From positions 194,820 to 258,819 of the IMG/VR virus record IMGVR_UViG_3300031994_000003: a stretch of DNA of 64,000 nt; one strand, written 5' to 3'. The notes beneath the pieces were generated by a model. The model saw nothing but the letters and a program-made list of their open reading frames with translations, ran no database searches and had not been told where the DNA came from. The position numbers and the translations under genes were made by a program. This DNA comes from a virus (taxonomy: Duplodnaviria > Heunggongvirae > Uroviricota > Caudoviricetes). Positions 18,142-34,434 of this stretch are shown one piece after another. The first letter of the stretch is position 1; each line of letters opens with the position of its first letter.

Positions 18142-18147
18142 CTCCAG

Positions 18148-18354
18148 TTACTCTATTATTTTAATAAGATAAATTCCAGAATATGAATTATAATTCATAA
18201 TATATTGAATATTATTTTCTTCACAATAATCTCTGATTTCATTAAATAAATCTTCATCAATTGTTGCTATGATGCCATCAGATGGCAAGGAAGAATATCG
18301 CTCAGAATATTCTTCCTTATTAATTACATTATTAAATACTTTATCAAAATGCAT
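18148..18354 (-). CDS. hypothetical protein (68 aa)
   Basis: Small intact ORF inside the NAD operon. Confidence 0.3.
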   Translation of the reverse strand: MHFDKVFNNVINKEEYSERYSSLPSDGIIATIDEDLFNEIRDYCEENNIQYIMNYNSYSGIYLIKIIE

Positions 18355-18356
18355 AA

Positions 18357-18908
18357 TTATTCAATAATATCAATATGCCACATCTTCATTGCTTCCAATG
18401 CGTTCTTATGAGATTCAGGAGTTACACAAGCACAACATCTTTCAACAATTGAAATATGAGATTCTGGGGCTGCGGCCTTAATACCACTAGCTTGATTATC
18501 TACGCAGATACCTGTACAATATCCAAAAATCTTAAAATCTAATGTTGGCCCATATTTCTTAACAAGTTTCTTTAGAACTTTACTCCATTTATCATAACCA
18601 AAAGATTTCTTATTAATAATCTTTACTTTACATTTATTTTCTTTTTGTTTCTTAAGAACGGCGTCCATAACTTCTTTTTTAATTTGCCATCCTTCAGTTC
18701 CTTTGATGCAATGTTCAACTGGTAATCTACTACCTTCCATTGTATTCATATAATTCTTATCATGAGTATCTCTGGTTAAGAAGATATACTTGCCTTTAAA
18801 ATTATTAATTTCCTCTATAATATTAGGAATTCTTTTAATGGCTTCTTCATTTCTTAATGCTCCATCGATAAAATCATTTTGTACATCTACAATTACTAAT
18901 ACTTCCAT
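18357..18908 (-). CDS. pncA: nicotinamidase, isochorismatase family (PncA-like)
   Basis: VLVIVDVQNDF, a metal-binding DTHD stretch, and the catalytic Cys in GYCTGICV. It is adjacent to pncB. Confidence 0.7.
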   Translation of the reverse strand: MEVLVIVDVQNDFIDGALRNEEAIKRIPNIIEEINNFKGKYIFLTRDTHDKNYMNTMEGSRLPVEHCIKGTEGWQIKKEVMDAVLKKQKENKCKVKIINKKSFGYDKWSKVLKKLVKKYGPTLDFKIFGYCTGICVDNQASGIKAAAPESHISIVERCCACVTPESHKNALEAMKMWHIDIIE

Positions 18909-18910
18909 AA

Positions 18911-20098
18911 TTATTCTCCTCTTCTTCTTGCAACTGCACTCTTTAAATATTCTAGATATCCTTCATCTTGGCACATTGCTTTTTCAGGATTATCTGAAAT
19001 TTTTGCAACAGGTCGGTCATTTACATATTGCAATTTAATAACAATATTTAATGGTTCAACACAAGTATCATTAGTAATAAATGTACCGATACCGAATGAT
19101 ACCTTAATTCTATCTTTGAAATATTCATAGATAGCTTGTGCCTTATCAAAGTTTAATGAATCACTAAATAGTAATGTTTTAGTTTTAGGATCAATTCCTA
19201 ACTTTTCATAATGAGCAATAATCTTTTCGCCCCATTCATAAGGGTCACCTGAGTCATGGCGAACACCACTATAGTGATTTGCTTGTACCTTATCAAAATC
19301 CTTTAAGAAACAATCTGTTGTAAGAGTATCTGTTAAAGCAGTACCCAAATCACCTTCATATTCCTCAAACCATTCCTTTAAAGCTACCTTGTTAGACATA
19401 GCTACTGGAATGTCCTCAATGCCTTGATACATTTGAACATATTCATGTGCGTATGTACCAATTGGAGTTAAGCCTAATTTATATGCTAAATAAACATTTG
19501 ATGTACCAACACAATTTTTAGTGTCGATCATTTGCTTAACAACCCATTCTTGGAATTCTCTTGATAGTCTTCTACGACAACCAAATTCAGCAAATTTAAA
19601 AGTATATTTATTAGTAACAAGGAAATCTATTACCTTATCAGATGCTCTTTTTACAGCACTATCTTTTAATTCTTGATAATCATACTTCATTCTGAAATAT
19701 ACTTCATTAACAATTTCAAGTAAATAAATTTCAAATGGAGAAACCATCCAAACTGGTCCTTCAATGCTAATCTTTAGTCTGCCATTATCATCTAAAGAAG
19801 TTGTTACATAACGTCTTAAAGGTCTATATAATCTTAAAGCTTCTACATAATCATACTTTAAAAATCTAATTGAGTGTAGATAATTAATTTCATCATCAGT
19901 AAAACTTAATGTACATAAATGATCAATTTGTGCATTGATTTCATCTAACATTTCATAAGTAAATTTTACATCCTTATTTCTACACTTAAAGATATATTTT
20001 CCTCTTAAATTTGGATGCTTGTGAAACATTACTTGTTGCATTGTAAATTTATAAAGATCTGTGTCTAATAGACTAATAACGATTGGTTCTAATTTCAT
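18911..20098 (-). CDS. pncB: nicotinate phosphoribosyltransferase
   Basis: The N-terminus IVISLLDTDLYKFTMQQVMF matches E. coli PncB [20 protein letters not shown]. The 395 aa length is typical. Confidence 0.8.
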   Translation of the reverse strand: MKLEPIVISLLDTDLYKFTMQQVMFHKHPNLRGKYIFKCRNKDVKFTYEMLDEINAQIDHLCTLSFTDDEINYLHSIRFLKYDYVEALRLYRPLRRYVTTSLDDNGRLKISIEGPVWMVSPFEIYLLEIVNEVYFRMKYDYQELKDSAVKRASDKVIDFLVTNKYTFKFAEFGCRRRLSREFQEWVVKQMIDTKNCVGTSNVYLAYKLGLTPIGTYAHEYVQMYQGIEDIPVAMSNKVALKEWFEEYEGDLGTALTDTLTTDCFLKDFDKVQANHYSGVRHDSGDPYEWGEKIIAHYEKLGIDPKTKTLLFSDSLNFDKAQAIYEYFKDRIKVSFGIGTFITNDTCVEPLNIVIKLQYVNDRPVAKISDNPEKAMCQDEGYLEYLKSAVARRRGE

Positions 20099-20126
20099 AT
20101 TTATTTTCCTCTTTTCCTTTTTATAA

Positions 20127-20732
20127 TTATAATGTTAATTTAAAAATATTTAATATTGAAAGCACACCAAGATATCCTGATAATGTTAATTCTAATTCAT
20201 TATTTTTTACCTTTTTCTGTAAAACAGTTAAAGGAATCTTATGAACTTCAATATCTTCTGTTTCTTCTAAATGTTGAGTACCTTCTTTACTTAACTCAAC
20301 AATGGCAAACATATTTGCCTCATCAGTCATTCCAGCACAAGCAGCTAATGGATAGTTTTGAATAAGTTTAAATGATTTAACCTCTCCACCAACTTCTTCA
20401 TTAACCTCTCTTGTAATTGCTGTTTCAAATGACTCATTATTTTCAATTAAACCAGCTGGGAAAGACATTACATATCTTCCCATAGCTGATCTAAATTCTT
20501 TTACCATAATGGCATATGGAATTCCATCTTCTACAATATATGTAAAGCATTCAACTGCTGTTGGTTTTACTTTATCAGGATTATTCATAACTAAATCTCT
20601 TTCATCATGTCTTGATACAAAGAAATAATTACGAAGTTTTCCATCTGTCATATATTGAGCTGTATAAAATTTTAAGAATTTTTTATCTAAATCCTTTTTT
20701 ACATTTAATAATTCTTGTGTTTTTAAACTCAT
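20127..20732 (-). CDS. Nudix hydrolase (ADP-ribose/NAD pyrophosphatase-like)
   Basis: Nudix box ETAITREVNEEVGGEV. Confidence 0.7.
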   Translation of the reverse strand: MSLKTQELLNVKKDLDKKFLKFYTAQYMTDGKLRNYFFVSRHDERDLVMNNPDKVKPTAVECFTYIVEDGIPYAIMVKEFRSAMGRYVMSFPAGLIENNESFETAITREVNEEVGGEVKSFKLIQNYPLAACAGMTDEANMFAIVELSKEGTQHLEETEDIEVHKIPLTVLQKKVKNNELELTLSGYLGVLSILNIFKLTL

Positions 20733-20748
20733 ACTATTACCTCAAATC

Positions 20749-21369
20749 CTAATTATGATCTGCCTCATCTAACATTTTAACGGTATTTTCTAAAACAGAA
20801 TATAATAATGAATCTTTTGGAATATTATATTTTTCACAAAGACCGTCAAATGATAATAATAAATTACCATTGTTTTGTCTTAAAGAAGATGCTTTACAAT
20901 CACAAAGCATTTCAATAATATCGATAAGTGTCATATCTGCAATACCATTTTTGAAATGTTCAGGGTGATGTCTTTCTTCCCTAAAATGATGATCTAGAGC
21001 AGGTTTTAAAGCTAATTTGCATTCATCATATTCAGGAGAACCATATGTTAAATATTTTAACTTTGCATTTTGTTCAGCAAAAAGTTCTACTTCTGGAGAA
21101 TACAATTTAGACACATCGTGTGTAAATGCTCTTTTTTCTAATAAAGAAATTACATAGAACATAATTTCTTCAACCTTTTTAGTATGTTGAATAGTTTCCC
21201 ATCTACATTCAAAAATTGACATGTAATCTTCTGGTGTTTCATTCTTCTCTACTAAAAAACGTGTTTTTCCACAACATTCACATTTATCTTCAACATCAAA
21301 AAATATTAAATCTTCTGGTTTAGCACCTGGTGCAATTTTACTTAAATAACATTTTTTACAAAAACCCAT
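20749..21369 (-). CDS. HD-domain phosphohydrolase (YfbR/5'-nucleotidase-like) with N-terminal Cys cluster
   Basis: RW...H...AFTHD...D spacing resembles YfbR-type HD hydrolases. The N-terminus has C-x-C-C and CKKC cysteines. Confidence 0.5.
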   Translation of the reverse strand: MGFCKKCYLSKIAPGAKPEDLIFFDVEDKCECCGKTRFLVEKNETPEDYMSIFECRWETIQHTKKVEEIMFYVISLLEKRAFTHDVSKLYSPEVELFAEQNAKLKYLTYGSPEYDECKLALKPALDHHFREERHHPEHFKNGIADMTLIDIIEMLCDCKASSLRQNNGNLLLSFDGLCEKYNIPKDSLLYSVLENTVKMLDEADHN

Positions 21370-21384
21370 TTTATCACCTTTTCC

Positions 21385-21624
21385 TTAATGTTTTCTTTTA
21401 TGTTTATTATCAAATAAACTAATGAAAAATACTACAATAAATACTAATAATGATATTGCTAGTACTGTAGCAGGGCCGATCCATAATGGAAAAACAACCC
21501 AAAACCATGACCAATCAATAACATGTGTTAATTTTAAAATTAAAAATACTATAAATAATATAAACCCTATACCACATCCACCTGATGTAGCGGCAGCTGT
21601 TCCTCTTGAATCATTATCGTTCAT
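21385..21624 (-). CDS. small hydrophobic membrane protein (79 aa)
   Basis: Two predicted TM helices (FILFIVFLILKL ... LAISLLVFIVVFFI). Confidence 0.4.
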   Translation of the reverse strand: MNDNDSRGTAAATSGGCGIGFILFIVFLILKLTHVIDWSWFWVVFPLWIGPATVLAISLLVFIVVFFISLFDNKHKRKH

Positions 21625-22157
21625 TATTGCTCTCCTCCATACTTGTATTTTAAATTTTTAAATATTTCTTTATTATCAGCAATATCAATAAATGTATTTA
21701 ATGCTGAAATTGCTGTATAATTTCTAACATCTTCACGTTCTGGTTCATCAGATGTTAATTTAACATCATATAATTCATTATCATATGCTATTGTCATAAA
21801 AACTTCTCCTTGTGGGTGCCCATCATCAGGACCTGGTCCAGATACACCACTAACAGCTATTGCACAGTCTGCATCATATAATTTCATAACTCCTAAACAC
21901 ATCATTCGCGTAGTCTCAAAATTATATGCGCCATTTTTATCTAAGAAGTCTTTATCAACACCTAAAACCTTATTCTTAATTTGATTGGTATAGACAGTTA
22001 CACCACCCTGATAATACTTACTAATTCCTGGAACTGAACAGATGCGTTCTGAAATCTTTCCAGCAGTTAGAGATTCAGCAACTGCTAACTTCAAATGATT
22101 AGTTTCTAGAATTGTTTTTAATCTATTTAAATCATATAATTCAATCATATTATTCAC
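21624..22157 (-). CDS. pncC: CinA C-terminal domain protein (PncC-like NMN deamidase)
   Basis: LKLAVAESLTAGKISERI corresponds to the CinA motif AESCTGG. The 177 aa length is typical of the CinA C-domain. Confidence 0.7.
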   Translation of the reverse strand: MNNMIELYDLNRLKTILETNHLKLAVAESLTAGKISERICSVPGISKYYQGGVTVYTNQIKNKVLGVDKDFLDKNGAYNFETTRMMCLGVMKLYDADCAIAVSGVSGPGPDDGHPQGEVFMTIAYDNELYDVKLTSDEPEREDVRNYTAISALNTFIDIADNKEIFKNLKYKYGGEQ

Positions 22158-22159
22158 CT

Positions 22160-23002
22160 TTAAATTCTAATTTCTAAACCTGATTCAAACTTTGGCATTA
22201 ATGTAACCTTATGTAAATTAGCAGCATGCATTCTATCAATTTTTTCTTTATGTACTAAATTTAAAATTTCGCCAGTTCTAATATATCTATCTAATTCATC
22301 ATAAGTAAAACCAAGTTTTTCTTCATCAGATTTTCCTGACATTCCATCATCTGGTGTCTTAAAAATTAAATCCTTTAATTCATCATAAATTCCAAGTCTA
22401 GTAGCACATACTACACCAACTTGTAATACTTCTGCAACAGTTAAATTTGCTAATGGACTAAAATCTCCGGCACTATCACCAAACTTTGTTGAATATCCAA
22501 CCCAATCCTCACTTAAATTACAAGTATTAACAACTCGTGTATTTCCTAATATAGCAGCAATACCATATAGTGTTGTCATTCTAACTCTAGCCGGAGTGTT
22601 TGTGTCATACATATCACCAAAAGTATTATTTACTCTCATTATTTCTTGCATTCTTTTACTTAATAAAGAACCTTTGCAAAAGTCTTCAAAAGAAGAGTGC
22701 CAAATAGCTGATGCTAAATCATTACACACATTACCAATATTAATAATATTAGCATTAATTCCAAGTAATTTGCAAACTTTTTTACTATCATTAATATCCT
22801 TTTGCATTCCATTTGGCATCATAACACCAAATACTTTGTCTTTTCCAATTGCTAGAACTGACAACATTGCAGTGATTGTTGAATCTTTACCACCACTAAT
22901 TCCTATTGCTATATTACAGGTACCGGCTTGTTCTCTAATCCAAGCAATAATATTATCTGTAATTAATTCAGCATTAAATTCATATTTATCATACATCTGC
23001 AT
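22160..23002 (-). CDS. nadE: NH3-dependent NAD+ synthetase
   Basis: PP-loop SGGKDS within IAIGISGGKDSTITAML. Length is 280 aa. Confidence 0.8.
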   Translation of the reverse strand: MQMYDKYEFNAELITDNIIAWIREQAGTCNIAIGISGGKDSTITAMLSVLAIGKDKVFGVMMPNGMQKDINDSKKVCKLLGINANIINIGNVCNDLASAIWHSSFEDFCKGSLLSKRMQEIMRVNNTFGDMYDTNTPARVRMTTLYGIAAILGNTRVVNTCNLSEDWVGYSTKFGDSAGDFSPLANLTVAEVLQVGVVCATRLGIYDELKDLIFKTPDDGMSGKSDEEKLGFTYDELDRYIRTGEILNLVHKEKIDRMHAANLHKVTLMPKFESGLEIRI

Positions 23003-23685: not shown

Positions 23686-24066
23686 TTACTTCACCATCCA
23701 AATATAACAAACCAAATAAGTTAAAATAACCTGAACAAAATGAATAGATTGATCAGTAATTAAATTTATTTTATGTCTATTTGCTTTAATATCATCAACA
23801 GTTGCATGTATTATAAAATTAATAGGAATTAACCACCAAATAAAATTGCCACTAATCATAGTTGGAATCATTATTGATATGCTCCACATCATTGCATGAC
23901 AAGAAACTGACATTAAATAATCATATTTATATTTTTCATCAGGTGCATGTTGTTCCCACCATTCTTTTTGTTTTAAATTACTTAGACACATTCCTTGCAA
24001 AAAGAAATCATCTATAAAATGTGCTAAGAATATTAATGCTAACCACATAATATTATCATTCATCAT
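23686..24066 (-). CDS. hypothetical membrane protein (126 aa)
   Basis: Several hydrophobic helices. Confidence 0.35.
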   Translation of the reverse strand: MMNDNIMWLALIFLAHFIDDFFLQGMCLSNLKQKEWWEQHAPDEKYKYDYLMSVSCHAMMWSISIMIPTMISGNFIWWLIPINFIIHATVDDIKANRHKINLITDQSIHFVQVILTYLVCYIWMVK

Positions 24067-24316
24067 TACTTTCCTCCTTATTAATTTCTATTGTTATTCT
24101 ATATCCATTTTTAGAATAACTATTTTTATAAGAATCCAAAGTTTTATTATTCACACCATCAATTATAGTATTAAATACTGCTTGATCTTTAATTCTCTCT
24201 TTTAGAGAGTCATATGCATTTTCAAAATAATCATCATTTTCTTTTGTTCTATTTGCTATTTGATATCTATGGTCTAGTAATAATCTTATAGCTCTTAATA
24301 TTTCTAAATCATCCAT
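24056..24316 (-). CDS. hypothetical protein (86 aa)
   Basis: Intact ORF. Confidence 0.3.
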   Translation of the reverse strand: MDDLEILRAIRLLLDHRYQIANRTKENDDYFENAYDSLKERIKDQAVFNTIIDGVNNKTLDSYKNSYSKNGYRITIEINKEESNDE

Positions 24317-24520
24317 AAACTACTCCTTTATATATTTAATCATAGCTTTTGATTTCTTTTGTGAAATATCTTCAGCTTTGTATTTATGAGATAATAATAA
24401 AGAGAGAACTTCTTTTGCTTGTTCTCCCTTATTACATATTATCTGACCTTTTATTTTTGTATAATTATTAGTTGTTTTTTCTACATGATTTTTCATAGAA
24501 GATACCTCCTTGTTTTTTCA

Positions 24521-24859
24521 TTATGCTAGTTTATATGTTACTTCTTTAAATCCTATGTTGTCGCAGAAAAAATACCTAGAATATCTTGAATCTATATCAC
24601 GCAACTCAACAATATCTCCTACACTCATAGAATGAGGAGCAAAATTTTTTGGAAGTTCCATATTAAATTTATAAAATAATTGTTCTAAAAATTTATAAAT
24701 GTTATCAATATCTATTTTATTTATATTACCATTTAAACCACTATCATCTTGCCATACACTAACATAATCACCAATGCTAATTTTATCGTCAATTAGGTCT
24801 AGGCTTTTAAATAAATTTTTATGATTATGTGGTAAATACCATAAATAATATCGTATCAT
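24521..24859 (-). CDS. hypothetical protein (112 aa)
   Basis: Intact ORF that overlaps the NADAR gene start by 4 nt. Confidence 0.35.
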   Translation of the reverse strand: MIRYYLWYLPHNHKNLFKSLDLIDDKISIGDYVSVWQDDSGLNGNINKIDIDNIYKFLEQLFYKFNMELPKNFAPHSMSVGDIVELRDIDSRYSRYFFCDNIGFKEVTYKLA

Positions 24860-25338
24860 AAGACATCTCCATTTACAATATCTCTATAATATTTTCTAAT
24901 ATCCATTAATACCTTACCTAATAAATTTTGACCAGTACCCTTTTTTCCAACACCCCAAATATAATCAAATGGAGAGTTTTCAAATAAATATGCATCCTTA
25001 GTATCAATTAATAATTTTCTTAAATCCTTATTATGAAAATATTTTGCCATATTTACTTGATACATAATATTATAACGAATTTCATTCCATTTTGTATCAT
25101 CATAATTTTTAACTTCTCTACCAAGTCGTTTGATTTTTAATGGATCTGTTTCATTAAGTATTTTTGCAGCTGTTTCATTATCATTAAATGTCATTGCTTT
25201 CATCCACATAAATGCTTGCTCAGTGCAATTAAATTGTCTATGGGCATATACAAATTTACATGGATAAAAGTTACTAAAACACTTATAATCACCTTCTGTG
25301 TGTGACCAAAATCCAATTTTATTCATTTTATTCACCAC
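24856..25338 (-). CDS. NADAR (YbiA/DUF1768) domain protein
   Basis: Motifs FSNFYP, TEQAFMWMKA and DYIWGVGKKGTGQNLLGKVLMDIR match the NADAR family. Confidence 0.65.
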   Translation of the reverse strand: MVNKMNKIGFWSHTEGDYKCFSNFYPCKFVYAHRQFNCTEQAFMWMKAMTFNDNETAAKILNETDPLKIKRLGREVKNYDDTKWNEIRYNIMYQVNMAKYFHNKDLRKLLIDTKDAYLFENSPFDYIWGVGKKGTGQNLLGKVLMDIRKYYRDIVNGDVL

Positions 25339-25544
25339 CTAATACGCGATGAGTTCCTTGTAAAACAGATCCAATTTTTTCACAATCAATATTTATCACA
25401 GCATCATCTGCATCAGCATGACCTGATAATTTATATTCTGTAAATCTATCTGTTAAACAAATTGGCTTATTTCCATATTTATTTAATAATTCACTTGAAA
25501 AAATAACTAAGTCTTGAATAGTTTTTATTTCCATAGAATCCTCC

Positions 25545-26327
25545 TTATTCATCTAAAAACACATATTGCTCAACATAATTTTTATCTTCAGAAAATCTTG
25601 GAATATTTTCATCAATAATCCATTCACTACATCCTTGTTCATCATATCTTTTAATACAACAACTTCCACGTTGATATTTAACTGGATATGTTGTAATATC
25701 GTGATCTTTCTTAGCAATTAAAATTCTAGTATCATTTAATTTCTTTCCACATAATTCATTTTGTGAATATAATGATTGAGCAACTGAATTAATTGCATTT
25801 CTTTCAGCATCTAATTGTCTCCAAACAAAGCAATTATTTACTTCTTCTTTTGGAATATTAAATGCTCTAGCATCAAAATATGCACCTTTTTCAAATGCAT
25901 TATAATATACAACATTTTGATTTTCATCATTATCTGATTTTTTCATTCGATCAGTCATTAATCTACCAAATGCTCTGTTAAATGCTAATGCTGCCATTGA
26001 TGCTGCTACTGATGTAATCTTCTCTAATTTGTAATCAAACCATGCACTTGTTTCCAAAGTATCATAATCAATTAATAATAATGTGATTTCATCAGATTGA
26101 GTATATCCAATTTTACAACCTTGAACATGCTCACATAAATATTTAGTTGTTTCTTGCATTGCTCTTGAGAATAAATCATCAAAAGGTTTTACAAATTTTC
26201 TTGTAAAAGTATGAAAAGCACAACCATCTAAACGAATAATAACAGGAGTTCTCCTAGTTAATTTATGTTTAGAAATATTTTCATAATTTGCTTTCATTCT
26301 ATCTCCAATTTTATCTACAAATGACAT
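25545..26327 (-). CDS. Thg1-like protein (tRNA-His guanylyltransferase family 3'-5' nucleotidyltransferase)
   Basis: VIIRLDGCAFHTFTRKFVKPFD, GYTQSDE and FDARAFNIPKEEVNNCFVWRQLDAERNAINS align with Thg1 VVVRLDGRNFHRF, AYGQSDE and FDGRVVVYP...SWRQAD. Confidence 0.8.
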   Translation of the reverse strand: MSFVDKIGDRMKANYENISKHKLTRRTPVIIRLDGCAFHTFTRKFVKPFDDLFSRAMQETTKYLCEHVQGCKIGYTQSDEITLLLIDYDTLETSAWFDYKLEKITSVAASMAALAFNRAFGRLMTDRMKKSDNDENQNVVYYNAFEKGAYFDARAFNIPKEEVNNCFVWRQLDAERNAINSVAQSLYSQNELCGKKLNDTRILIAKKDHDITTYPVKYQRGSCCIKRYDEQGCSEWIIDENIPRFSEDKNYVEQYVFLDE

Positions 26328-26342
26328 ATTGCTTACCTTCTT

Positions 26343-27047
26343 TTACCATTTTTTGTATAATTTACCATTTTCTCTAAATACTCTATATCTATATTTAGAT
26401 GCCAAACAATTTGTATCATATCTCAAACTGTCTGTATTAAAATTAATTTGCCTGAAAACTTCTGAACTAATCTTATGCGAATCAATATATTCATTTACTT
26501 CAGTATCCTTCTTTGCATGCTGAAGATCCTTTATTGTTATTTGATCAACATATTGTCCATTATAGTTTTCTTTAATATAATCAAAATTTTCTACTGTTGC
26601 TAAAATAACCCATCTTATAATTGGTTTAGTTGCCTTATTTTCATTACTATTTCTTACTTCTGCGATTTTTATAGCTTTTGCTATATCAGATGGCATTGCT
26701 AATGAATATGCAATAACATCAAAATCTTTTACAAATGATTCATCAAATGACTGTATGTTGTGTGTTTGTAATTCAATCTTCTGTATATTTGGCCGTGTAT
26801 CTTTATCAATAAAATTAATTACCTCATGAATCCAATTTTTATTTAAAGTTGGTTCTGTAGCACCTGTTATTATAATATCACCATTCATATTTTGTAATAT
26901 TTTATTTAATTTATTGAAATATTTTGCTTTATTTATATTATATAAATTTTTAAATTTATTATTATTTGATGCAATACACATTGGACAATTATATAGACAT
27001 TTTTGATATGGAACACATAATTGTAAATTTAAATTATATTTTTTCAT
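26343..27047 (-). CDS. radical SAM enzyme (QueE/activase-like; function unresolved)
   Basis: CxxxCxxC cluster CLYNCPMC near the N-terminus and a GGE-like motif TGATEPTL. Length is 234 aa. Confidence 0.55.
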   Translation of the reverse strand: MKKYNLNLQLCVPYQKCLYNCPMCIASNNNKFKNLYNINKAKYFNKLNKILQNMNGDIIITGATEPTLNKNWIHEVINFIDKDTRPNIQKIELQTHNIQSFDESFVKDFDVIAYSLAMPSDIAKAIKIAEVRNSNENKATKPIIRWVILATVENFDYIKENYNGQYVDQITIKDLQHAKKDTEVNEYIDSHKISSEVFRQINFNTDSLRYDTNCLASKYRYRVFRENGKLYKKW

Positions 27048-27367
27048 ACTACCTCCATAATTTTTAAATCTTCTTTATTTAATGACCACAATTCTCCATA
27101 AGATTTTAATGGATATATAATTTTATAATCTCCTACTTTTATTACCTTATTATCAAGATCTATTGATACATCAAAATCCATTTGTAATGTTATAATTGTG
27201 TTATTAAATTTAAAATATACATAGTCTGTGTCTTTTGATGCTAATAATTTAAAAAGTATAACTGCATCAATTTCATACTTTTTTTCTAATTTTTCAATCT
27301 CTTGAATCTTATTTTGGTTCATATTATTTTCCTTTCTGAATATGGATATATCATGAGTATTTGTCAT
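27044..27367 (-). CDS. hypothetical protein (107 aa)
   Basis: Intact ORF overlapping the radical SAM gene start. Confidence 0.3.
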   Translation of the reverse strand: MTNTHDISIFRKENNMNQNKIQEIEKLEKKYEIDAVILFKLLASKDTDYVYFKFNNTIITLQMDFDVSIDLDNKVIKVGDYKIIYPLKSYGELWSLNKEDLKIMEVV

Positions 27368-27448
27368 ATATATCCTATTATAATAATATATATAACAAAA
27401 AAAAATTAAAAATATAAGCTATAACTTATATTTTTTATTATTCTTTTC

Positions 27449-27523
27449 TGGCAGGGGTAGAAGGACTCGAACCCACACTCACGGTTTTGGAGACCGGCTT
27501 GCTACCATTGACAATATACCCCT
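27449..27523 (-). tRNA. tRNA-Trp (CCA)
   Basis: Acceptor AGGGGTA/TACCCCT, anticodon loop CTCCAAA, T-arm GTGGG-TTCGAGT-CCTTC, CCA encoded. Confidence 0.8.
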
Positions 27524-27526
27524 ATA

Positions 27527-27602
27527 TGGTGCCACCGGGTGGAATTGAACCACCGACACAAGGATTTTCAGTCCTTTGCTCTACCAACTGAGCTACAGTG
27601 GC
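27527..27602 (-). tRNA. tRNA-Phe (GAA)
   Basis: GCCACTG...AAGGA-CTGAAAA-TCCTT...GGTGG-TTCAATT-CCACC-CGGTGGC-A-CCA. Confidence 0.85.
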
Positions 27603-27603
27603 A

Positions 27604-27692
27604 TGGAGGATAGGGTCGGATTCGAACCGACGCGGACCGACGTCCCTAACAGTGTTGCAGACTGCCCTCTTCAGCCTCTTGAGTACCTACCC
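27604..27692 (-). tRNA. class II (long variable arm) tRNA with Cys anticodon GCA and U73
   Basis: GGGTAGG-TA-CTC-AAGAGGCTGAA-GAG-G-GCAGT-CTGCAAC-ACTGT, then variable hairpin GGAC-GTCG-GTCC, then GTCGG-TTCGAAT-CCGAC-CCTATCC-T-CCA. The D-arm is nearly identical to that of tRNA-Ser(GCT) at 30557. Confidence 0.6.
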
Positions 27693-27712
27693 TATGTATT
27701 AGATTGATTATC

Positions 27713-28018
27713 TTAACCAATCGTTAAATTTATAAAATGATTAATAACATCAGGTAAATCAGTTTTATTTATTTTAATATATTTACCATTATTCCACTTA
27801 TAATACTGTGTTATAGTGTCATCAACTATTGGATATATTCCAGGATTTGCTGCTTCTATAACGGCATATGGATAATATCCTGCTTCATAGATATCACAAC
27901 AGTTACTTAAAATACGTTGTTCGGCTTCTTCAAAAGTTTCAAAAAAGCCAACAGTTCTAATACCTGATGGACCATATTTATCATCAATTTTATTAATTGT
28001 TCCTATGAAGTAAATCAT
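27713..28018 (-). CDS. hypothetical protein (101 aa)
   Basis: Intact ORF within the tRNA array. Confidence 0.35.
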   Translation of the reverse strand: MIYFIGTINKIDDKYGPSGIRTVGFFETFEEAEQRILSNCCDIYEAGYYPYAVIEAANPGIYPIVDDTITQYYKWNNGKYIKINKTDLPDVINHFINLTIG

Positions 28019-28041
28019 TTTTTTTCTCCTTTAACTTTAAA

Positions 28042-28117
28042 TGGTGGCCCCGGAGGAACTCGAATCCTCGACCCACAGATTAAAAGTCTGTTGCTCTACC
28101 AACTGAGCTACGGGACC
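28042..28117 (-). tRNA. tRNA-Lys (TTT)
   Basis: Anticodon arm ACAGA-CTTTTAA-TCTGT, T-loop TTCGAGT, CCA encoded. Confidence 0.85.
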
Positions 28118-28124
28118 ATATTGA

Positions 28125-28200
<76 letters not shown>

Positions 28201-28374
28201 ATAAATATCATTAACATAATTAACGCTTGAACCTCTAGCCTCCAAGGACATATCCAAATTTACTTTTAATAAATTCAAATACCCTCAGGTGGGATTTGAA
28301 CCACACGATAATTTATTTGCTACCTCTGTTACTTCTGCAGAGTCTTAATTATGTTATGTTATTATTTATATTGT

Positions 28375-28451
28375 TGGTGGATCCACAAGGGCTTGAACCT
28401 TGGACCGCCCGGTTATGGGCCGGGTGCTCTAACCAACTGAGCTATGGATCC
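28375..28451 (-). tRNA. tRNA with CAT anticodon (elongator Met or Ile2)
   Basis: GGATCCA...CCCGG-CCCATAA-CCGGG...CAAGG-TTCAAGC-CCTTG-TGGATCC-A-CCA. Position 33 is C. Confidence 0.75.
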
Positions 28452-28613
28452 ATAACGTGTTCATATTCGATCTCGTTACGCTGTCGTCATTTAGCGCCTG
28501 AACACACATACATACACCTACTATGTTATTTCAAACATACCCTCATTCCTTCCTACCAAATGTATGGCGCTTCTGCTCTCCGCGTTTAAATCTCCGTAAA
28601 ATACGAATCATTA

Positions 28614-28690
28614 GGGTGGCTTCAGTGGGACTCGAACCCACGACCTATCGGGTATGAACCGATTGCTCTAACCAACTGAGCTACAAAGCC
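28614..28690 (-). tRNA. tRNA with CAT anticodon (Met/Ile2)
   Basis: GGCTTTG...ATCGG-TTCATAC-CCGAT...GTGGG-TTCGAGT-CCCAC-TGAAGCC-A. The 3' CCA is not encoded. Confidence 0.75.
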
Positions 28691-28817
28691 AATAAATAAT
28701 TATTTGGATGATTTGGCAATTATCATCATCAGGAAACAGCTCTTAACTGCTCTTCTTCGCACCTTATGCAAAAACCGGGGATGGTTCTGTTCTTTACCAC
28801 TTAAACTACAAATAATA

Positions 28818-29231
28818 TTATTCTCTAGCTAATTTGCTAACAAGCCCCATATCAACTTGTCCATTATAATTTGCTTTAAAATGCTTCATAATAGAAGGCA
28901 TTGATTTATCTTCTAATGTGTTTATAATTTCTCTAATCTTATCTTCAGTTAATTGTTTTGGTAAGAAATCAGATAATACTTTCTTTTGTGCTTCTAATTC
29001 AGAAACTTTATCTTCTTTATTTACTTTACTAAATAATTCAATTTCTTCTTCTAATTGTTTAATCATTTTTTTAATAACCAAAACAACATCTGTATCAGAT
29101 AACTTATCAACCTTTAATTCAATAGCTTTATTCTTAATGTTTCCATAAGCTAATGATAAAATTGATTTTGCAATAATATCATTGTTTTTTCTAGCATCAT
29201 TCATTCCTTGATGGATTTCATCATACTTCAT
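28818..29231 (-). CDS. GatB/YqeY domain protein
   Basis: The 137 aa protein matches YqeY-family proteins over its whole length (...LEEEIELFSK...QKKVLSDFLPKQLTEDKIREII...). Confidence 0.65.
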   Translation of the reverse strand: MKYDEIHQGMNDARKNNDIIAKSILSLAYGNIKNKAIELKVDKLSDTDVVLVIKKMIKQLEEEIELFSKVNKEDKVSELEAQKKVLSDFLPKQLTEDKIREIINTLEDKSMPSIMKHFKANYNGQVDMGLVSKLARE

Positions 29232-29258
29232 ATTTCATATCTCCTTAATTTAATAAAT

Positions 29259-29346
29259 CTGGTGCCTCGTCTCGGATTCGAACCGAGATGGAATTTAATC
29301 CACGGATTTTAAGTCCGTTGTGTCTCACCAGTTGCACCAACGAGGC
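29259..29346 (-). tRNA. tRNA-Leu (TAA), class II
   Basis: GCCTCGT...ACGGA-CTTAAAA-TCCGT-variable arm GGATTAAATTCC...CTCGG-TTCGAAT-CCGAG-ACGAGGC-A-CCA. Confidence 0.85.
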
Positions 29347-29353
29347 ATAATAT

Positions 29354-29430
<77 letters not shown>

Positions 29431-29433
29431 TCA

Positions 29434-29506
29434 TGACGACATCGGAATCGAACCGACAACCTCCTGCGGCTAAGCAGGCGCTCTCCCTTGTTGAGCTAAT
29501 CGTCCG
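29434..29506 (-). pseudogene. aberrant tRNA-like element (good D- and T-arms, odd anticodon loop TTAGCCG, no encoded CCA, 1-72 mismatch)
   Basis: GGACGAT-TA-GCTC-AACAAGGGA-GAGC-G-CCTGC-TTAGCCG-GCAGG-AGGTT-GTCGG-TTCGATT-CCGAT-GTCGTCA. The apparent anticodon AGC has a pyrimidine at position 37. Confidence 0.45.
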
Positions 29507-29601
29507 GAACTTTAATTTTCAGATGCATCTATTAGGTAAAGTTCTTAACCTTTCTATATATAAAATAGCGTTCATGACTCGCCTTTTATAAACTTATATC
29601 A

Positions 29602-29678
29602 TGGTGTGCCTGAATGGACTTGAACCATTGACCTCTCGGTTATCAGCCGAGTGCTCTAACCAACTGAGCTACAGGCAC
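29602..29678 (-). tRNA. tRNA-Ile (GAT)
   Basis: GTGCCTG...CTCGG-CTGATAA-CCGAG...AATGG-TTCAAGT-CCATT-CAGGCAC-A-CCA. Confidence 0.85.
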
Positions 29679-29688
29679 ATTATAAAAA

Positions 29689-29764
29689 TGGTGGAAGATA
29701 GTGGGTTCGAACCACTGACCCTCTGCTTGTAAAACAGATGCTCTCCCAGCTGAGCTAATCTTCC
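29689..29764 (-). tRNA. tRNA-Val (TAC)
   Basis: GGAAGAT...TCTGT-TTTACAA-GCAGA...AGTGG-TTCGAAC-CCACT-ATCTTCC-A-CCA. Confidence 0.85.
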
Positions 29765-29765
29765 A

Positions 29766-29812
29766 TGGTGGAGATGAGGGGAGTCGAACCCCTGTATTGA
29801 ACTCCTATTCAT
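29766..29812 (-). pseudogene. truncated tRNA (3' half only: T-arm plus acceptor 3' strand plus CCA)
   Basis: AGGGG-TTCGACT-CCCCT-CATCTCC-A-CCA is present. No matching 5' acceptor strand or D-arm lies upstream. Confidence 0.45.
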
Positions 29813-30140
29813 TTATTTTCTACATGTTATTTAATTTATTTTTACCATTATACTCATAATTAACAAAAGAATATAATTCCTTAAAATTCTTATGGCGAAT
29901 TTAATACCACCAACGCTTAACTGAACTACTTTATAATTTGTTGGCAATTATATTTCGTTTTTAAATTTTATATTAAATTTAAAATATTATTGCTTAGGCA
30001 AAAACCACTTGGTTGATCATTGCGTTTGCGATTAATTTGTTTGCGTTTATTTCTAAACCTCGACGTTGTTAAGGCAGTCTGCTACCCATGCTTATAAATT
30101 TCAAAAAATCCAAGCGAATACCAAAAAACATCCCCATAAC

Positions 30141-30216
30141 TGGCGTATCCTGAAGGACTCGAACCCTCAACGCCGAGTTCGTAGCCCGGCAGTTTATCCA
30201 GTTAGCCTAAGGATAC
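30141..30216 (-). tRNA. tRNA-Arg (ACG), slightly irregular D-arm
   Basis: GTATCCT...CCGGG-CTACGAA-CTCGG...GAGGG-TTCGAGT-CCTTC-AGGATAC-G-CCA. The D-stem pairing is weak. Confidence 0.65.
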
Positions 30217-30236
30217 ACTATGAAAAAATAATATTA

Positions 30237-30557
30237 TTATTTTTCATCAGTATAAAGTGATAATAGCTTCTTTATAAATCTTTCTAAAGAAGGAGCAGTA
30301 TAATCTTCTGTTTCTCCAAGAACTTGAACTGTAATATCTGTATTACTATCAAATCTTAAAGTTAATAATCCTAAAATAGATTTACCATTAACATAACTAA
30401 AATTTCCTAGTTTAATGTTAATTTCATCAGATGTAAATTCTCCTGCTTTTTCTACAAATGCTGTTGCGAAACCTAAGTTTGATGGTTTGCAATTTTCTGG
30501 AATTGTTACTGTAAATGTGCGCATATTTTTTTGTTCTCCTTTTTTTGTATTATACAT
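30237..30557 (-). CDS. HPr-like phosphocarrier-fold protein lacking His15 (Crh/HPr mimic)
   Basis: Aligns with HPr: TFTVTIPENCKPSNLGFATAFV vs TFKVTADSGIHARPATVLV (His15 replaced), and NGKSILGLLTL vs NLKSIMGVMSL (Ser46 region conserved). Length is 106 aa. Confidence 0.55.
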   Translation of the reverse strand: MYNTKKGEQKNMRTFTVTIPENCKPSNLGFATAFVEKAGEFTSDEINIKLGNFSYVNGKSILGLLTLRFDSNTDITVQVLGETEDYTAPSLERFIKKLLSLYTDEK

Positions 30558-30647
30558 GGCGATGGCTGAGGGATTCGAACCCTCGCACCGGTTATCCGGC
30601 CTACTTCCTTAGCAGGGAAGCCTCTTGAGCCTCTTGAGTAAGCCATC
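30557..30647 (-). tRNA. tRNA-Ser (GCT), class II
   Basis: GATGGCT-TA-CTC-AAGAGGCTCAA-GAG-G-CTTCC-CTGCTAA-GGAAG-variable hairpin GGCCGGATAACCGGTGC-GAGGG-TTCGAAT-CCCTC-AGCCATC-G-CCA. Confidence 0.85.
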
Positions 30648-30654
30648 AATATAT

Positions 30655-30731
30655 TGGTCCGGATTACAGGATTCGAACCTGTGACCCCTTGATCCCAAAT
30701 CAAGTGCTCTACCAAGCTGAGCTAAATCCGG
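30655..30731 (-). tRNA. tRNA-Pro (TGG)
   Basis: CCGGATT (C1-G72)...CTTGA-TTTGGGA-TCAAG...ACAGG-TTCGAAT-CCTGT-AATCCGG-A-CCA. Confidence 0.85.
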
Positions 30732-30737
30732 ATATTA

Positions 30738-30825
30738 GGTGTTCTAGATAGGATTTGAACCTACAAATGATGGCCAGTCACAAAGGGCAATAGCCCTTCT
30801 GCATTCGCCTCATGCGAGCTAGAAC
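30738..30825 (-). pseudogene. aberrant tRNA-like element with the anticodon arm replaced by a stable GC hairpin
   Basis: Acceptor GTTCTAG/CTAGAAC, D-arm GCAT-GAGGCGA-ATGC and T-arm GTAGG-TTCAAAT-CCTAT are good. The anticodon position forms AAGGGC-TATT-GCCCTT, a 6 bp stem with a 4 nt loop. The alternative 7-nt loop CTATTGC gives a nonsense anticodon ATT. CCA is not encoded. Confidence 0.45.
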
Positions 30826-30828
30826 ATA

Positions 30829-30914
30829 TGGTGCCTGGAGCGGGAGTTGAACCCGCATGGCTTTCGCCGCTAGTTTCTAAGACTAGTGTGTCTAACCAGT
30901 TGCACCACCCAGGC
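30829..30914 (-). tRNA. tRNA-Leu (TAG), class II
   Basis: GCCTGGG...CTAGT-CTTAGAA-ACTAG-variable GGCGAAAGCC...GCGGG-TTCAACT-CCCGC-TCCAGGC-A-CCA. Confidence 0.85.
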
Positions 30915-30942
30915 ATATAGGAGTATTATAATACTCCATTTA

Positions 30943-31227
30943 TTAATATAAATTCCAATCTATTTTACCGCTAATAAATCGTTTTGCGGTAGTTTTATTA
31001 TAAACTAAATCTTCATAATTTTTATTCAAGTTATTATTTATTTTATGACGTATTACTTTATTTAAATATCGTTTATAATATTTCTTTAAATGCGGACGAC
31101 CCTTTGATCTAACATAACGATATTTATATACATCAAAATATGCACCACTATAATAGCTTCTAGACTCATTTGCTAATTTTTTAAGTCTTCTTTTAGTTAT
31201 TTGATCTCTATATCTAAAGTTTCCCAT
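30943..31227 (-). CDS. small highly basic protein (94 aa)
   Basis: Lys/Arg/Tyr-rich intact ORF inside the tRNA array. Confidence 0.35.
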   Translation of the reverse strand: MGNFRYRDQITKRRLKKLANESRSYYSGAYFDVYKYRYVRSKGRPHLKKYYKRYLNKVIRHKINNNLNKNYEDLVYNKTTAKRFISGKIDWNLY

Positions 31228-31250
31228 ATAAATATTTCCTTTCTATATAA

Positions 31251-31335
31251 TGGTGGCCAGGGTAGGACTCGAACCTACGAACCCGTTAGGGAGCAGATTT
31301 ACAGTCTGCTGACTTTGCCGCTTTGCTACCTGGCC
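31251..31335 (-). tRNA. tRNA-Tyr (GTA), class II
   Basis: GGCCAGG...GCAGA-CTGTAAA-TCTGC-variable CCCTAACGGG-...-AGGTTCGAGTCCT-ACCCTGGCC-A-CCA. The anticodon arm is identical to E. coli tRNA-Tyr. Confidence 0.85.
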
Positions 31336-31372
31336 ATGTAAAGAGCATAAATTAAATTATGCTCTGAAATAT

Positions 31373-32602
31373 TTAAATAGATTTGATAGTGATTACTCCA
31401 CCTTCACCCATTTGGTATTGTGGAACATCACCAGTCCATTTCTCTATCTTATAAACTTCAATTAACTTTTCTACACCCTTAGCTAATTCATCGGCTGTAA
31501 CTAATGTTTCATCTGGCTTATATAATTTATTATATTGTGTGCCATTTGCTTCTGTAGTAGTTACAACAGTCCAGCCATTAATAGATGCTAATTTTTGTAA
31601 TGCAATTGCAGCATTCTTTTGTCCTGCATATAAAGCAGTATCTGCTTCAATCTTTGCAACATCTTGATCTGCTTGTGCTTTAATTCTTGCAACATCAGCT
31701 TCAGCTTCTGCTCTTAATTGAGCTGACTGAGCTTCAGCTTCTGCATTCTTAATAGCAATTTGTTTATTGTTTTCTGCTTCTGCTAATTGTCTTTCTTGTT
31801 CAATTAAAGCTTGTTGTCTCTTTTGCTCTTCAGCAACCTTTGCTGCAACAGCTGCCTCAAAATCAGGTGTAAATTCTATATTTTTAATATTTACACTAGT
31901 AATTGTAATAAATTGAGAATCACTATCAGTAATAAATGGTGTTGATAATGAGTCTTTGATAACTGTTGCAACAGTTTCTCTTAATTGAATAATTTGTTCA
32001 GCAGTTTTTGTTCCAATTACTGTCTTAGTTGCATCTAACATTTTTGGAGCAATAATATCCTTTAATGCGTTTGTTGAGCCAATATTTTCTGCAACATATC
32101 TAACTTCATTATTAGGAATTCTATATTGAATATTTAAATCAAAACTAATAACTTGATTATCCTTTGAATAAGATGCAGTTTCTTCTTTAGAAAAATTTAT
32201 TGAAATAACTTTTGTATCATACATTTCATACTCATTAGTAAAATACCAGTCCCAATAAACACCAGGGTTTCTAATTCCTGTGACTGTTCCCATATGTCTT
32301 ACAACTGCAACTTCACCGGTATTGACTTGATGAATATTACCGGGAATTAAAATTAATGAAACTAACATTACTACAGCAAATGATATGAATAATATCATTG
32401 TTCTTAATAATGATTTTAATCTCTTTTCTGATTCTTCAATTTGTTCATTCAATTTTTCTGATGTGCCGTATTTAGTTTCTCTTCTAAGGTCATAAAGATT
32501 ATCTTTTAACTGATATCTTTTATAGCCTTTAAATATAGCTAATGCAATAGATGCTATCATAAGAAAAATAAATACTAATATTAATGTTATTTTAATTGCC
32601 AT
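31373..32602 (-). CDS. SPFH/band-7 (stomatin/prohibitin/HflK-like) membrane protein
   Basis: N-terminal TM helices, then an SPFH-domain pattern (VRHMGTVTGIRNPGVYW...ITITSVNIKNIEF), then an Ala/Glu/Gln-rich coiled coil. Length is 409 aa. Confidence 0.7.
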   Translation of the reverse strand: MAIKITLILVFIFLMIASIALAIFKGYKRYQLKDNLYDLRRETKYGTSEKLNEQIEESEKRLKSLLRTMILFISFAVVMLVSLILIPGNIHQVNTGEVAVVRHMGTVTGIRNPGVYWDWYFTNEYEMYDTKVISINFSKEETASYSKDNQVISFDLNIQYRIPNNEVRYVAENIGSTNALKDIIAPKMLDATKTVIGTKTAEQIIQLRETVATVIKDSLSTPFITDSDSQFITITSVNIKNIEFTPDFEAAVAAKVAEEQKRQQALIEQERQLAEAENNKQIAIKNAEAEAQSAQLRAEAEADVARIKAQADQDVAKIEADTALYAGQKNAAIALQKLASINGWTVVTTTEANGTQYNKLYKPDETLVTADELAKGVEKLIEVYKIEKWTGDVPQYQMGEGGVITIKSI

Positions 32603-32634
32603 TCCTGTTCTCCTATTTTCTCCTTTTTATTTTA

Positions 32635-32710
32635 TGGTTGGAGGGGGCGGACTTGAACCGCCGACCTCAGGGTTATGAGCCCTGCAAGCTACCAACTGCT
32701 CCACCCTCCA
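32635..32710 (-). tRNA. tRNA with CAT anticodon, likely initiator tRNA-fMet
   Basis: TGGAGGG (weak U1-A72 pair)...CAGGG-CTCATAA-CCCTG shows three consecutive G-C pairs at the base of the anticodon stem, an initiator hallmark. Then GGCGG-TTCAAGT-CCGCC-CCCTCCA-A-CCA. Confidence 0.7.
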
Positions 32711-32963
32711 ATGTAGTTATTATAATATTCAATAGTAAAAAGCGTTTCCACTTGGTTCTAAAATTAGCTTATAAAAATTAATTATAAGCAAATTTTAAAA
32801 ATTATTATCTATCATTATTTGTATTTTGAGTGTCCATATATCCTTTAAAGTCTTCATATGAAGAGTCAATATATTTGGCAGCTGCAACTATACCAATAAT
32901 GATAGCAATTGTGAAAATAATACTTACTATCATAATACTTGCTCCTTTTTTTAATTTTTTATT

Positions 32964-33039
32964 TGGTGACGGCGGAGGGACTCGAACCCTCGTATGTCAG
33001 GATGAAAACCTGATGTGTTAGCCTCTTCACCACGCCGCC
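32964..33039 (-). tRNA. tRNA-Glu (TTC)
   Basis: GGCGGCG...TCAGG-TTTTCAT-CCTGA...GAGGG-TTCGAGT-CCCTC-CGCCGTC-A-CCA. Confidence 0.8.
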
Positions 33040-33400
33040 GTTATGATGCATAAAGCATCTAAAAATGGTTTGTTTAATTAATAGATGACATATAAACCAT
33101 TACAAAAAAGTCTGCCATCTTGTATAAAAATTTCTTCATATTTTTAATCTCCAATCTAGGTTTTAGCGTCTTTTATCTTGACGAGATGATTAGAGAGTAT
33201 TATTTAGGTTATAAGAGAATCGGCAATGGACCATACTCAATGAGTCATTTCCAACGTCTATCTCTTATCTCATAGCATTAGCTACGGGTTTTATAGACTT
33301 TGCGCCTTGTCTGTGCTATAACTTAAAAAGTTATATCTATAGTTATCACTCCTATCAACAACGTTCAAGGGCTCAGCTATAACTTTTTGTTCCTTTAATT

Positions 33401-33477
33401 TGGCGGTCCGGACGAGACTCGAACTCGCGACCTCCGCAGTGACAGTGCGGCATTCTAACCAGCTGAACTACCGGACC
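33401..33477 (-). tRNA. tRNA-Asp (GTC)
   Basis: GGTCCGG...CCGCA-CTGTCAC-TGCGG...GCGAG-TTCGAGT-CTCGT-CCGGACC-G-CCA. Confidence 0.85.
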
Positions 33478-33521
33478 ATAGAAAAATAAGTAATCAAAAC
33501 ATAGATTACTTATTGAGCATT

Positions 33522-34429: not shown

Positions 34430-34434
34430 AAATA

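Follow-up and report, generated by a model that had tools for sequence, protein, structure and literature searches.

We analysed a 64,000-nucleotide stretch of DNA, the window, which corresponds to positions 194,820 to 258,819 of the IMG/VR virus record IMGVR_UViG_3300031994_000003 (Caudoviricetes) and has a G+C content of 27.5%. It encodes a Thg1-like protein (TLP), predicted to be a templated 3'-5' nucleotidyltransferase of the bacterial TLP clade, and, about 10 kb away on the same strand, a tRNA-His(GTG) with an adenosine at the discriminator position (A73). The 29 tRNA or tRNA-like genes that ARAGORN identified in the window, and a transfer-messenger RNA (tmRNA) gene, are without exception on the minus strand. 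The TLP gene is the third of a tightly packed same-strand string located just downstream of the tRNA array. This string comprises, in order, an open reading frame (ORF) of 107 amino acids, a radical-SAM-like ORF, the TLP gene, an ORF of 74 amino acids that overlaps the TLP stop codon, and the genes of a NADAR-domain protein and a YodL-like protein. No terminator-like site was found in a scan from the tRNA array to the TLP gene, and promoter-like sites were not above chance. Coordinates are collected in Table 1.

The TLP ORF starts with ATG and encodes 260 amino acids. It matches the Thg1 profile of Pfam (PF04446) over positions 3-130 of 130, with an E-value of 9.5e-30 and a score of 103.6 bits for a cut-off of 29.2. 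Residues 5-257 align with positions 3-240 of the 250 positions of PHROG 4717, 'tRNA-His guanylyltransferase' (E 2e-77). These two matches bear out the Thg1-family assignment proposed in a first-pass annotation made from the sequence alone, and the motifs quoted there are found in the ORF as RLDG..FHTF, GYTQSDE and FVWRQLD. The best solved relative is the TLP of Bacillus thuringiensis (BtTLP; 4KGK), aligned over residues 5-259 with an E-value of 1.7e-54. The archaeal TLP of M. acetivorans follows at 2.1e-9, and the eukaryotic Thg1 enzymes (human, Candida and others; 3otb, 7cv1, 3wbz) give only marginal matches to the N-terminal part (E 2e-5 to 3.5e-5). Among characterised enzymes, TLPs are thus closer to the phage protein in sequence than eukaryotic Thg1 is, and the phage protein falls outside the eukaryotic clade.

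In an alignment of 26 sequences, TLP and 25 homologues, residues E16, R32, D34, S78, D79 and E80 are invariant. D34, D79 and E80 align with the metal-binding carboxylates D30, D75 and E76 of BtTLP, and E16 and R32 with its residues E12 and R28, the roles of which have been described (PMC3701042). The three active-site carboxylates, D29, D76 and E77 in hTHG1, are therefore present. Family membership and the integrity of the active site are direct observations: judged by its sequence, the ORF encodes an intact enzyme that belongs to the bacterial TLP clade and is not a eukaryote-type Thg1. TLP resembles BtTLP (4KGK/4KGM) in length, in its aligned catalytic residues and in its expected chemistry, which consists of 5' activation and templated 3'-5' addition. 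It differs from BtTLP by an insertion of about 20 residues near residues 125-145, and in being phage-encoded beside a tRNA array, with an activity that is predicted. With eukaryotic Thg1 (3OTB) it shares the superfamily fold, the catalytic carboxylates and the presence of A73 in the partner tRNA.

The closest homologues of TLP are metagenomic (53-57% identity), and GenBank phage proteins are 40-45% identical to it. An identical protein was found on a contig of 332,878 bp. Megablast of positions 24000..37000 of the window against GenBank phages returned short tRNA matches only, and a single-protein scan of IMG/VR for close relatives of the window found none. The source of TLP is a jumbo phage without a close relative in GenBank. 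The phage distribution of the family was observed directly: tblastn with TLP matched 162 GenBank phage records, where its usual annotation is 'tRNA-His guanylyltransferase'. Among these phages are Bacillus Bastillevirinae, phage G, Fusobacterium phage Fnu1, Lak megaphages, Caulobacter and Brevundimonas phages and enterobacterial jumbo phages. In IMG/VR, a TLP gene is present at no fewer than 563 loci (two scans, each with more than 560). TLP belongs to the PHROG 4717 family, together with proteins of Fnu1/FNU3, Bacillus Bastillevirinae, Pectobacterium phage CBB and Pseudomonas phage 201phi2-1. Thg1 in large phages had been recorded by Anantharaman et al. 2010 and Iyer et al. 2021, who both raised tRNA-His maturation or RNA repair against host defence. 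The window gene adds a new member to a phage family that is already known and widely annotated.

The acceptor stem of the phage tRNA-His (GTGGCGT/ACGTCAC) forms 7 of 7 pairs, one of them G-U. It is preceded by tacaT-G, that is, by U-2 and then G-1, as in canonical bacterial tRNA-His. Both ARAGORN and direct reading of the sequence confirm the earlier description of this tRNA as carrying A73, an encoded CCA and a genomic G-1, and none of the other registers in which it was read yields C73. Like bacterial tRNA-His genes, the phage gene encodes G-1, a U at -2 and CCA. In the bacterial tRNA, however, G-1 pairs with C73 to form an 8-bp acceptor stem and RNase P cuts at -1; the phage discriminator is A, so that the eighth pair cannot form. 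Alphaproteobacterial tRNA-His of the G-1-less type has A73, no G-1 and a G1:U72 pair, whereas the phage gene encodes G-1 and has G1:C72 as its first pair. G-1 is absent from eukaryotic tRNA-His genes, while in the phage gene it is encoded and conserved.

According to reviews and a cleavage-site study, the G-1:C73 pair is the most critical feature moving the bacterial RNase P cut to -1, and a second determinant of cleavage is a U immediately 5' of the cut site. The argument of the first-pass annotation that A73 removes the protection afforded by G-1:C73 is therefore sound. It had concluded that the encoded G-1 is probably removed, and here our data point the opposite way. We enumerated in IMG/VR tRNA-His genes of the form G1U2G3...C70A71C72-A73-CCA, leaving the upstream bases free in the pattern, and found at least 115 phage loci with at least 82 unique sequences. 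Selection on G-1 is directly visible in this set: G occupies the genomic -1 position in 78 of the 82 unique sequences (95%), compared with 8% G across flanking positions. At -2, 65 of them have U and 12 have C. Among the 27 other tRNAs of the window, 25 have T at -1 (p 2e-10, given that T has a frequency of 0.33 on the strand). In the window tRNA-His the T lies at -2 instead, followed by G-1, which fits cleavage 5' of G-1. A nucleotide conserved to this extent is unlikely to be one that RNase P merely discards, and its selection suggests that G-1 is kept in the mature phage tRNA-His despite the unpaired position 73. This class of phage tRNA-His, with a conserved unpaired G-1 and A73, appears undescribed in the literature searched.

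Since TLP falls in the BtTLP-type clade, the kinetics of BtTLP bear on the A73 question. BtTLP adds G-1 about 50-fold more efficiently opposite C73 than opposite A73, and when GTP and UTP are supplied at equimolar concentrations, its addition of U opposite A73 exceeds that of G about 40-fold (PMC3061083). Its kcat/KM is 5- to 160-fold higher for 5'-truncated tRNA than for -1 addition, and it repairs non-His tRNAs as well (PMC3061083). The kinetic preference for 5'-truncated tRNAs and Watson-Crick templating are established for BtTLP and MaTLP only, and non-templated G addition is so far confined to eukaryotic enzymes (PMC3061083). On these data, templated addition opposite A73 would yield U-1 instead of G-1. 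Histidyl-tRNA synthetase (HisRS) is reported to depend mainly on the 5'-phosphate at position -1, and U-1 might therefore be enough. The first-pass annotation had equated the phage system with exactly the Thg1 reaction on A73 tRNA-His. The Thg1 family part of this statement stands; the eukaryote-type G-1 addition does not, as TLP belongs to the clade of BtTLP, which is some 50-fold weaker on A73.

With moderate confidence, we propose that TLP acts as a general templated tRNA 5'-end repair enzyme for the phage and host tRNA pools, in which restoration of the -1 nucleotide of tRNA-His is at most one reaction. This reading, which the first-pass annotation offered as its alternative, is the one that our analysis supports best. 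TLP would use ATP or GTP to activate the 5'-monophosphate of a tRNA short of one or more 5' nucleotides. It would then add the lost nucleotides in the 3'-5' direction with the 3' strand of the acceptor stem as Watson-Crick template, and so restore the full stem. TLP would be one tool of an RNA-repair and quality-control kit that also includes the RNA ligase, two phosphoesterases, the DUF2828/DUF7788 protein and the YhaM-like exonuclease encoded in the window. With such a kit, the tRNA pools of phage and host may stay functional in the course of infection despite damage by nucleases or inaccurate 5' processing. The phage tRNA-His, with U-2, G-1, A73 and CCA, would most likely mature with its encoded G-1, and re-addition of a -1 nucleotide to tRNA-His cut at +1 by RNase P would be at most a side activity of TLP. 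What we propose about substrates, templated repair in vivo and a link to host defence is predicted from homology with BtTLP.

Table 1. Position of TLP, tRNA genes and other features in the window.
Feature	Position	Strand	Basis or remark
Thg1-like protein (TLP), predicted templated 3'-5' nucleotidyltransferase of the bacterial TLP clade	25545..26327	-	Pfam, PHROG, BtTLP match
tRNA-His(GTG), A73, encoded CCA	36093..36168, with leader to 36170	-	ARAGORN, cloverleaf, sequence reading; genomic G-1 (36169), U-2 (36170)
Array of 28 tRNA or tRNA-like genes and tmRNA	27449..36334	-	Directly upstream of the TLP operon
tRNA-Glu, 29th tRNA	16699..16773	-	ARAGORN
Radical-SAM-like protein (CxxxCxxC)	26343..27047	-	Ends 15 nt upstream of the TLP start
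NADAR-domain protein	24856..25338	-	Pfam PF08719 E 4.9e-47; downstream of TLP, same gene string
ATP-dependent RNA ligase (DRB0094 / PHA02142 OB-fold type)	13821..15017	-	Pfam PHA02142 E 1.3e-22, RNA_ligase E 6.3e-13; TIGR02306 E 1.2e-25; phrog_968 E 1.5e-54
Metallophosphoesterase adjoining the RNA ligase	12903..13808	-	Pfam Metallophos E 1.5e-8; phrog_547 E 2.1e-29
Second metallophosphoesterase, within the tRNA array	33522..34241	-	Pfam; phrog_547 E 6.2e-43
DUF2828/DUF7788 protein (PHROG 'RNA-binding protein'), adjoins tRNA-Glu	15184..16647	-	Pfam; phrog_850 E 1.5e-128
HD-domain protein resembling 3'-5' exoribonuclease YhaM	5652..6647	-	Pfam HD; NF010007 YhaM E 2.1e-34, below curated cut-off
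YqeY/GatB-like domain protein	28818..29231	-	Interspersed in the tRNA array
HPr-like protein	30237..30557	-	Interspersed in the tRNA array
SPFH/prohibitin protein	31373..32602	-	Interspersed in the tRNA array
tRNA-Cys(GCA)	27604..27692	-	89 nt
tRNA-Met(CAU)	28614..28690	-	
tRNA-like gene	29433..29505	-	
tmRNA	29766..30135	-	In the tRNA array
tRNA with AUU anticodon	30738..30825	-	88 nt
NAD+ salvage/synthesis set	17548..23002	-	Contiguous
Reverse-transcriptase-domain ORF	42644..44083	-	RVT_1, E 1.4e-9
RNA polymerase beta-like ORF	45504..47699	-	Rpb2 domain 6, E 1.5e-23

The genomic context, read directly from the window, was compared with 81 TLP loci from 25 lineages. The most recurrent neighbours of TLP are metallophosphoesterases, in two clusters found in 4 lineages each, and an RNA ligase, found in 3. 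The phosphoesterase encoded within the tRNA array of the window belongs to one of these recurrent families (cluster 80, near TLP in 4 of the 25 lineages), and the ligases near TLP in the 3 other phage lineages have the same two Pfam domains as the window ligase. The recurrence of phosphoesterases and of an RNA ligase points weakly, though consistently, to an RNA-repair setting. The radical-SAM, NADAR and YodL proteins were also considered as conserved TLP partners and were ruled out across the same loci. The radical-SAM-like protein itself matches Pfam Radical_SAM below the curated cut-off (E 1.4e-4), shows weak CofH/MqnE-type matches and has no match in PHROG.

The RNA ligase and phosphoesterases of the window share a common logic, the protection of the tRNA pool, with Pnkp and Rnl1/Rnl2 of T4 and with the RNA-repair genes of jumbo phages. 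T4-type systems reseal breaks in the anticodon loop, whereas the predicted target of TLP is the acceptor stem, whose 5' strand it would rebuild. We know of no defence nuclease that attacks tRNA 5' ends. Fusobacterium phage FNU3 resembles the window in its tRNA-His with G-1, U-2, A73 and CCA, its RNA ligase beside tRNAs, its radical-SAM gene and its prohibitin/SPFH gene, which lies three genes downstream of its TLP gene. The TLP of the window phage differs from the other phage proteins of the PHROG 4717 family in that it has no near relative in GenBank, and its gene directly follows the tRNA and tmRNA array in a window with 29 tRNA or tRNA-like genes.

A possible but doubtful alternative is that TLP serves as a fail-safe for tRNA-His. 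As G-1 cannot pair with A73, RNase P would cut a fraction of the precursor at +1, and TLP would restore the -1 nucleotide (U where A73 serves as template, or else G) and with it the 5'-phosphate that HisRS needs; a general repair activity may remain beside this role. TLP would then be the functional partner of the G-1/A73 tRNA-His in the window phage, Fnu1-like phages and CBB, and the design U-2, G-1, G1U2G3...C70A71C72, A73, CCA would be a widespread, phage-evolved tRNA-His in which the unpaired G-1 is essential. We give this partnership, like the phage-evolved design that goes with it, a low probability. The importance described for G-1:C73 in -1 cleavage argues for it, as does a scheme of mixed cleavage and repair described for plant mitochondrial tRNA-His. 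BtTLP can add U-1 or G-1 to A73-tRNA-His and rescues a yeast thg1-delta strain, but its rates with A73 substrates are low, 108-230 M-1 s-1 (PMC3061083). In Fnu1-like phages, the acceptor stem covaries (GTGGGAG/CTCTCAC versus GTGGTAA/TTACCAC) with G-1 and A73 fixed.

The presence of TLP together with a G-1/A73 tRNA-His in the window, Fnu1-like phages, CBB and contig L260 also speaks for a fail-safe role. Other data on co-occurrence speak against a dedicated pairing. In IMG/VR, they cover 10-kb flanks of the 80 top-ranking TLP loci of each scan. At 65 of 80 and 62 of 77 of these loci (two scans), the flanks of the TLP gene contain no tRNA over this distance. Staphylococcus phage PMBT8 carries a TLP of 43.8% identity, and no tRNA gene was found in 87,142 of its 88,129 bp (98.9% of the genome), so a phage tRNA-His cannot be the substrate there. 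TLP-bearing lineages also possess other types of tRNA-His: G-1:C73 in L071, L076, L489, L491 and in L005 with L113, and U-1/U73 in L035. The tRNA-His of Bacillus Bastillevirinae has A73 and a C1:G72 pair and lacks G-1; it is found in the TLP-positive phages QCM8, Bc431v3 and BMBsp2 and also in JBP901 and Nate, both absent from the list of TLP matches. The tRNA cluster of Lak-A1 (485-501 kb, 19 tRNA calls) contains no tRNA-His(GTG); a candidate Lak match was rejected, as it turned out to be a tRNA-Asn. Enzyme and A73 tRNA-His are thus not always found together, which speaks against the dedicated maturation pairing of the first-pass annotation.

In a random sample of 94 phage tRNA-His, 51 are G-1/C73, 23 are T-1/C73 and 11 have A73, 3 of these being G-1/A73. 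A73 occurs in 2 of 5 lineages sampled by TLP first, compared with 11 of 94 in this background, an enrichment that is not significant (p 0.13). Within 10 kb of TLP, a G-1/A73 tRNA-His was found in 0 of the 25 lineages of the closest TLP relatives, and none of the contigs of these lineages is among the listed contigs carrying this type. A concatenated A73 tRNA-His query against GenBank, which was too insensitive, recovered Pectobacterium phage CBB only. The association between TLP and A73 tRNA-His is suggestive at best and certainly not obligatory, and a specific link of TLP to the tRNA-His of the window is not established by these data.

The reading placed first in the first-pass annotation was that G-1 is always removed and that TLP is an obligatory, dedicated G-1-adding enzyme for A73 tRNA-His. 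We consider it improbable. A73 is indeed the eukaryotic discriminator, the RNase P logic holds, and TLP and tRNA-His share a genome region and strand, the same pair being present in Fusobacterium phage FNU3 and Pectobacterium phage CBB. TLP nevertheless lies outside the eukaryotic Thg1 clade, and BtTLP disfavours G opposite A73 on both of the measures given above. Moreover, the conservation of G-1 would be pointless if it were always discarded, and TLP is widespread in phages without such a tRNA-His. Still less probable is an action of TLP on non-tRNA RNAs, in which it would extend or 5'-activate (App-/Gpp-) phage or host RNAs or prime nucleic-acid synthesis: BtTLP accumulates App- and Gpp-activated 5' ends (PMC3061083), Dictyostelium TLPs have distinct, partly non-tRNA-His roles (PMC5041481), and a phage without tRNAs carries the gene, but the characterised family members all act on tRNA or tRNA-like acceptor stems, the gene abuts a tRNA array and nothing in the locus indicates another substrate.

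Several points weigh against general 5'-end repair as the role of TLP. To our knowledge, bacterial-type TLPs, first described as active in 5'-end repair in 2010, have been assigned no in vivo substrate to date, and our literature search retrieved no paper testing a phage TLP or describing the A73/G-1 class of phage tRNA-His. The conservation of the TLP neighbourhood is weak, with the best neighbour family present in only 4 of 25 lineages. The U-2/G-1/A73/CCA tRNA-His and TLP do co-occur in the window, in Fnu1-like phages, in CBB and in contig L260, and TLP lies inside the flanks of 3 of 89 A73 loci and 0 of 120 C73 loci (p 0.076). The rescue of yeast thg1-delta with A73 tRNA-His by BtTLP, though weak, is a further such point (PMC3061083). 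Finally, we infer retention of the unpaired G-1 from its conservation, while the literature names G-1:C73 as the main determinant of -1 cleavage.

Other phage tRNA-His genes encountered in these surveys show features of their own. The C1:G72/A73 tRNA-His without G-1 of Bacillus phages (L204, 3994..4069; L405-L408) is conserved with or without TLP; by known identity rules, such a tRNA should serve a standard bacterial HisRS poorly. The 23 of 94 sampled tRNA-His with C73 and T at -1 (L082, L088, L104, L107, L112, L133, L137, L138, L140 and others) include many that form one family with the upstream sequence 'actgcctt|GTGTCG...'. They would be ideal substrates for templated G-1 addition, and no TLP lies in their short flanks. 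Tandem U.U mismatches at acceptor positions 4:69 and 5:68 (5' N-N-G-T-T-G... / ...C-T-T-C-N-N 3') occur in many unrelated phage tRNA-His (L071, L076, L489, L491, L035/L467, L097, L099, L182, L188, L196). In one TLP lineage, a tRNA-His with these mismatches lies about 5.8 kb upstream of the TLP gene.

The acceptor stems of 26 of the 27 other window tRNAs are fully paired, once the registers of the tRNA-Met at 28614 and of tRNA-Asn(att) are corrected, and tRNA-Ala has one internal mismatch. Editing of 5' ends by TLP, in the style of amoebal mitochondria, was rejected, as none of these 27 tRNAs has a 5'-end mismatch. The tRNA-like gene listed in Table 1 has a 6-nt anticodon loop (TTAGCC), a G1.A72 mismatch atop the acceptor stem and no encoded CCA, which all but three of the other array tRNAs encode. 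This gene may be a pseudogene, or its product may undergo remodelling at the 5' or 3' end. Long variable arms are found in tRNA-Cys(GCA) and in the tRNA with an AUU anticodon. The latter ends in ACC, and the tRNA-Met(CAU) in ACCC instead of ACCA; the 8-bp stem called by ARAGORN for this tRNA-Met is better read as U-1 and a normal 7-bp stem. The tmRNA encodes the tag peptide ANKLIANAMINQVVFA, which ends in ...VFA where ...LAA is usual; this ending may hint at the tagging and proteolysis system of the host.

Elsewhere in the window, the NAD+ salvage/synthesis set is complete; it comprises an NMNAT-like cytidylyltransferase, a PncA-like isochorismatase, NAPRTase, NUDIX, CinA/PncC and NadE, and is followed by the NADAR gene. 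We take it to resemble the NAD+-reconstitution counter-defence pathways reported in phages. The reverse-transcriptase-domain ORF lies near the RNA polymerase beta-like ORF, and the latter fits a phage multisubunit RNA polymerase.

In practical terms, the outcome for the window is modest: the family annotation of the gene is correct. The class of phage tRNA-His with G-1 and A73 is a more interesting by-product than the TLP gene itself, as the conserved G-1 opposite A73 questions the textbook view that G-1:C73 lets bacterial RNase P keep G-1. If TLP were the partner of this tRNA-His, the phages would combine the bacterial route to tRNA-His identity (an encoded G-1) with the eukaryotic one (A73 and an enzyme of the Thg1 family), and the tRNA would be the first physiological substrate for a bacterial-type TLP. 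Phages often carry TLPs, as seen in hundreds of contigs and in one phage without tRNA genes, and those that can be cultured include Fnu1, CBB and Bacillus Bastillevirinae. Phage TLPs could therefore offer a tractable route to what damages tRNA 5' ends during infection.

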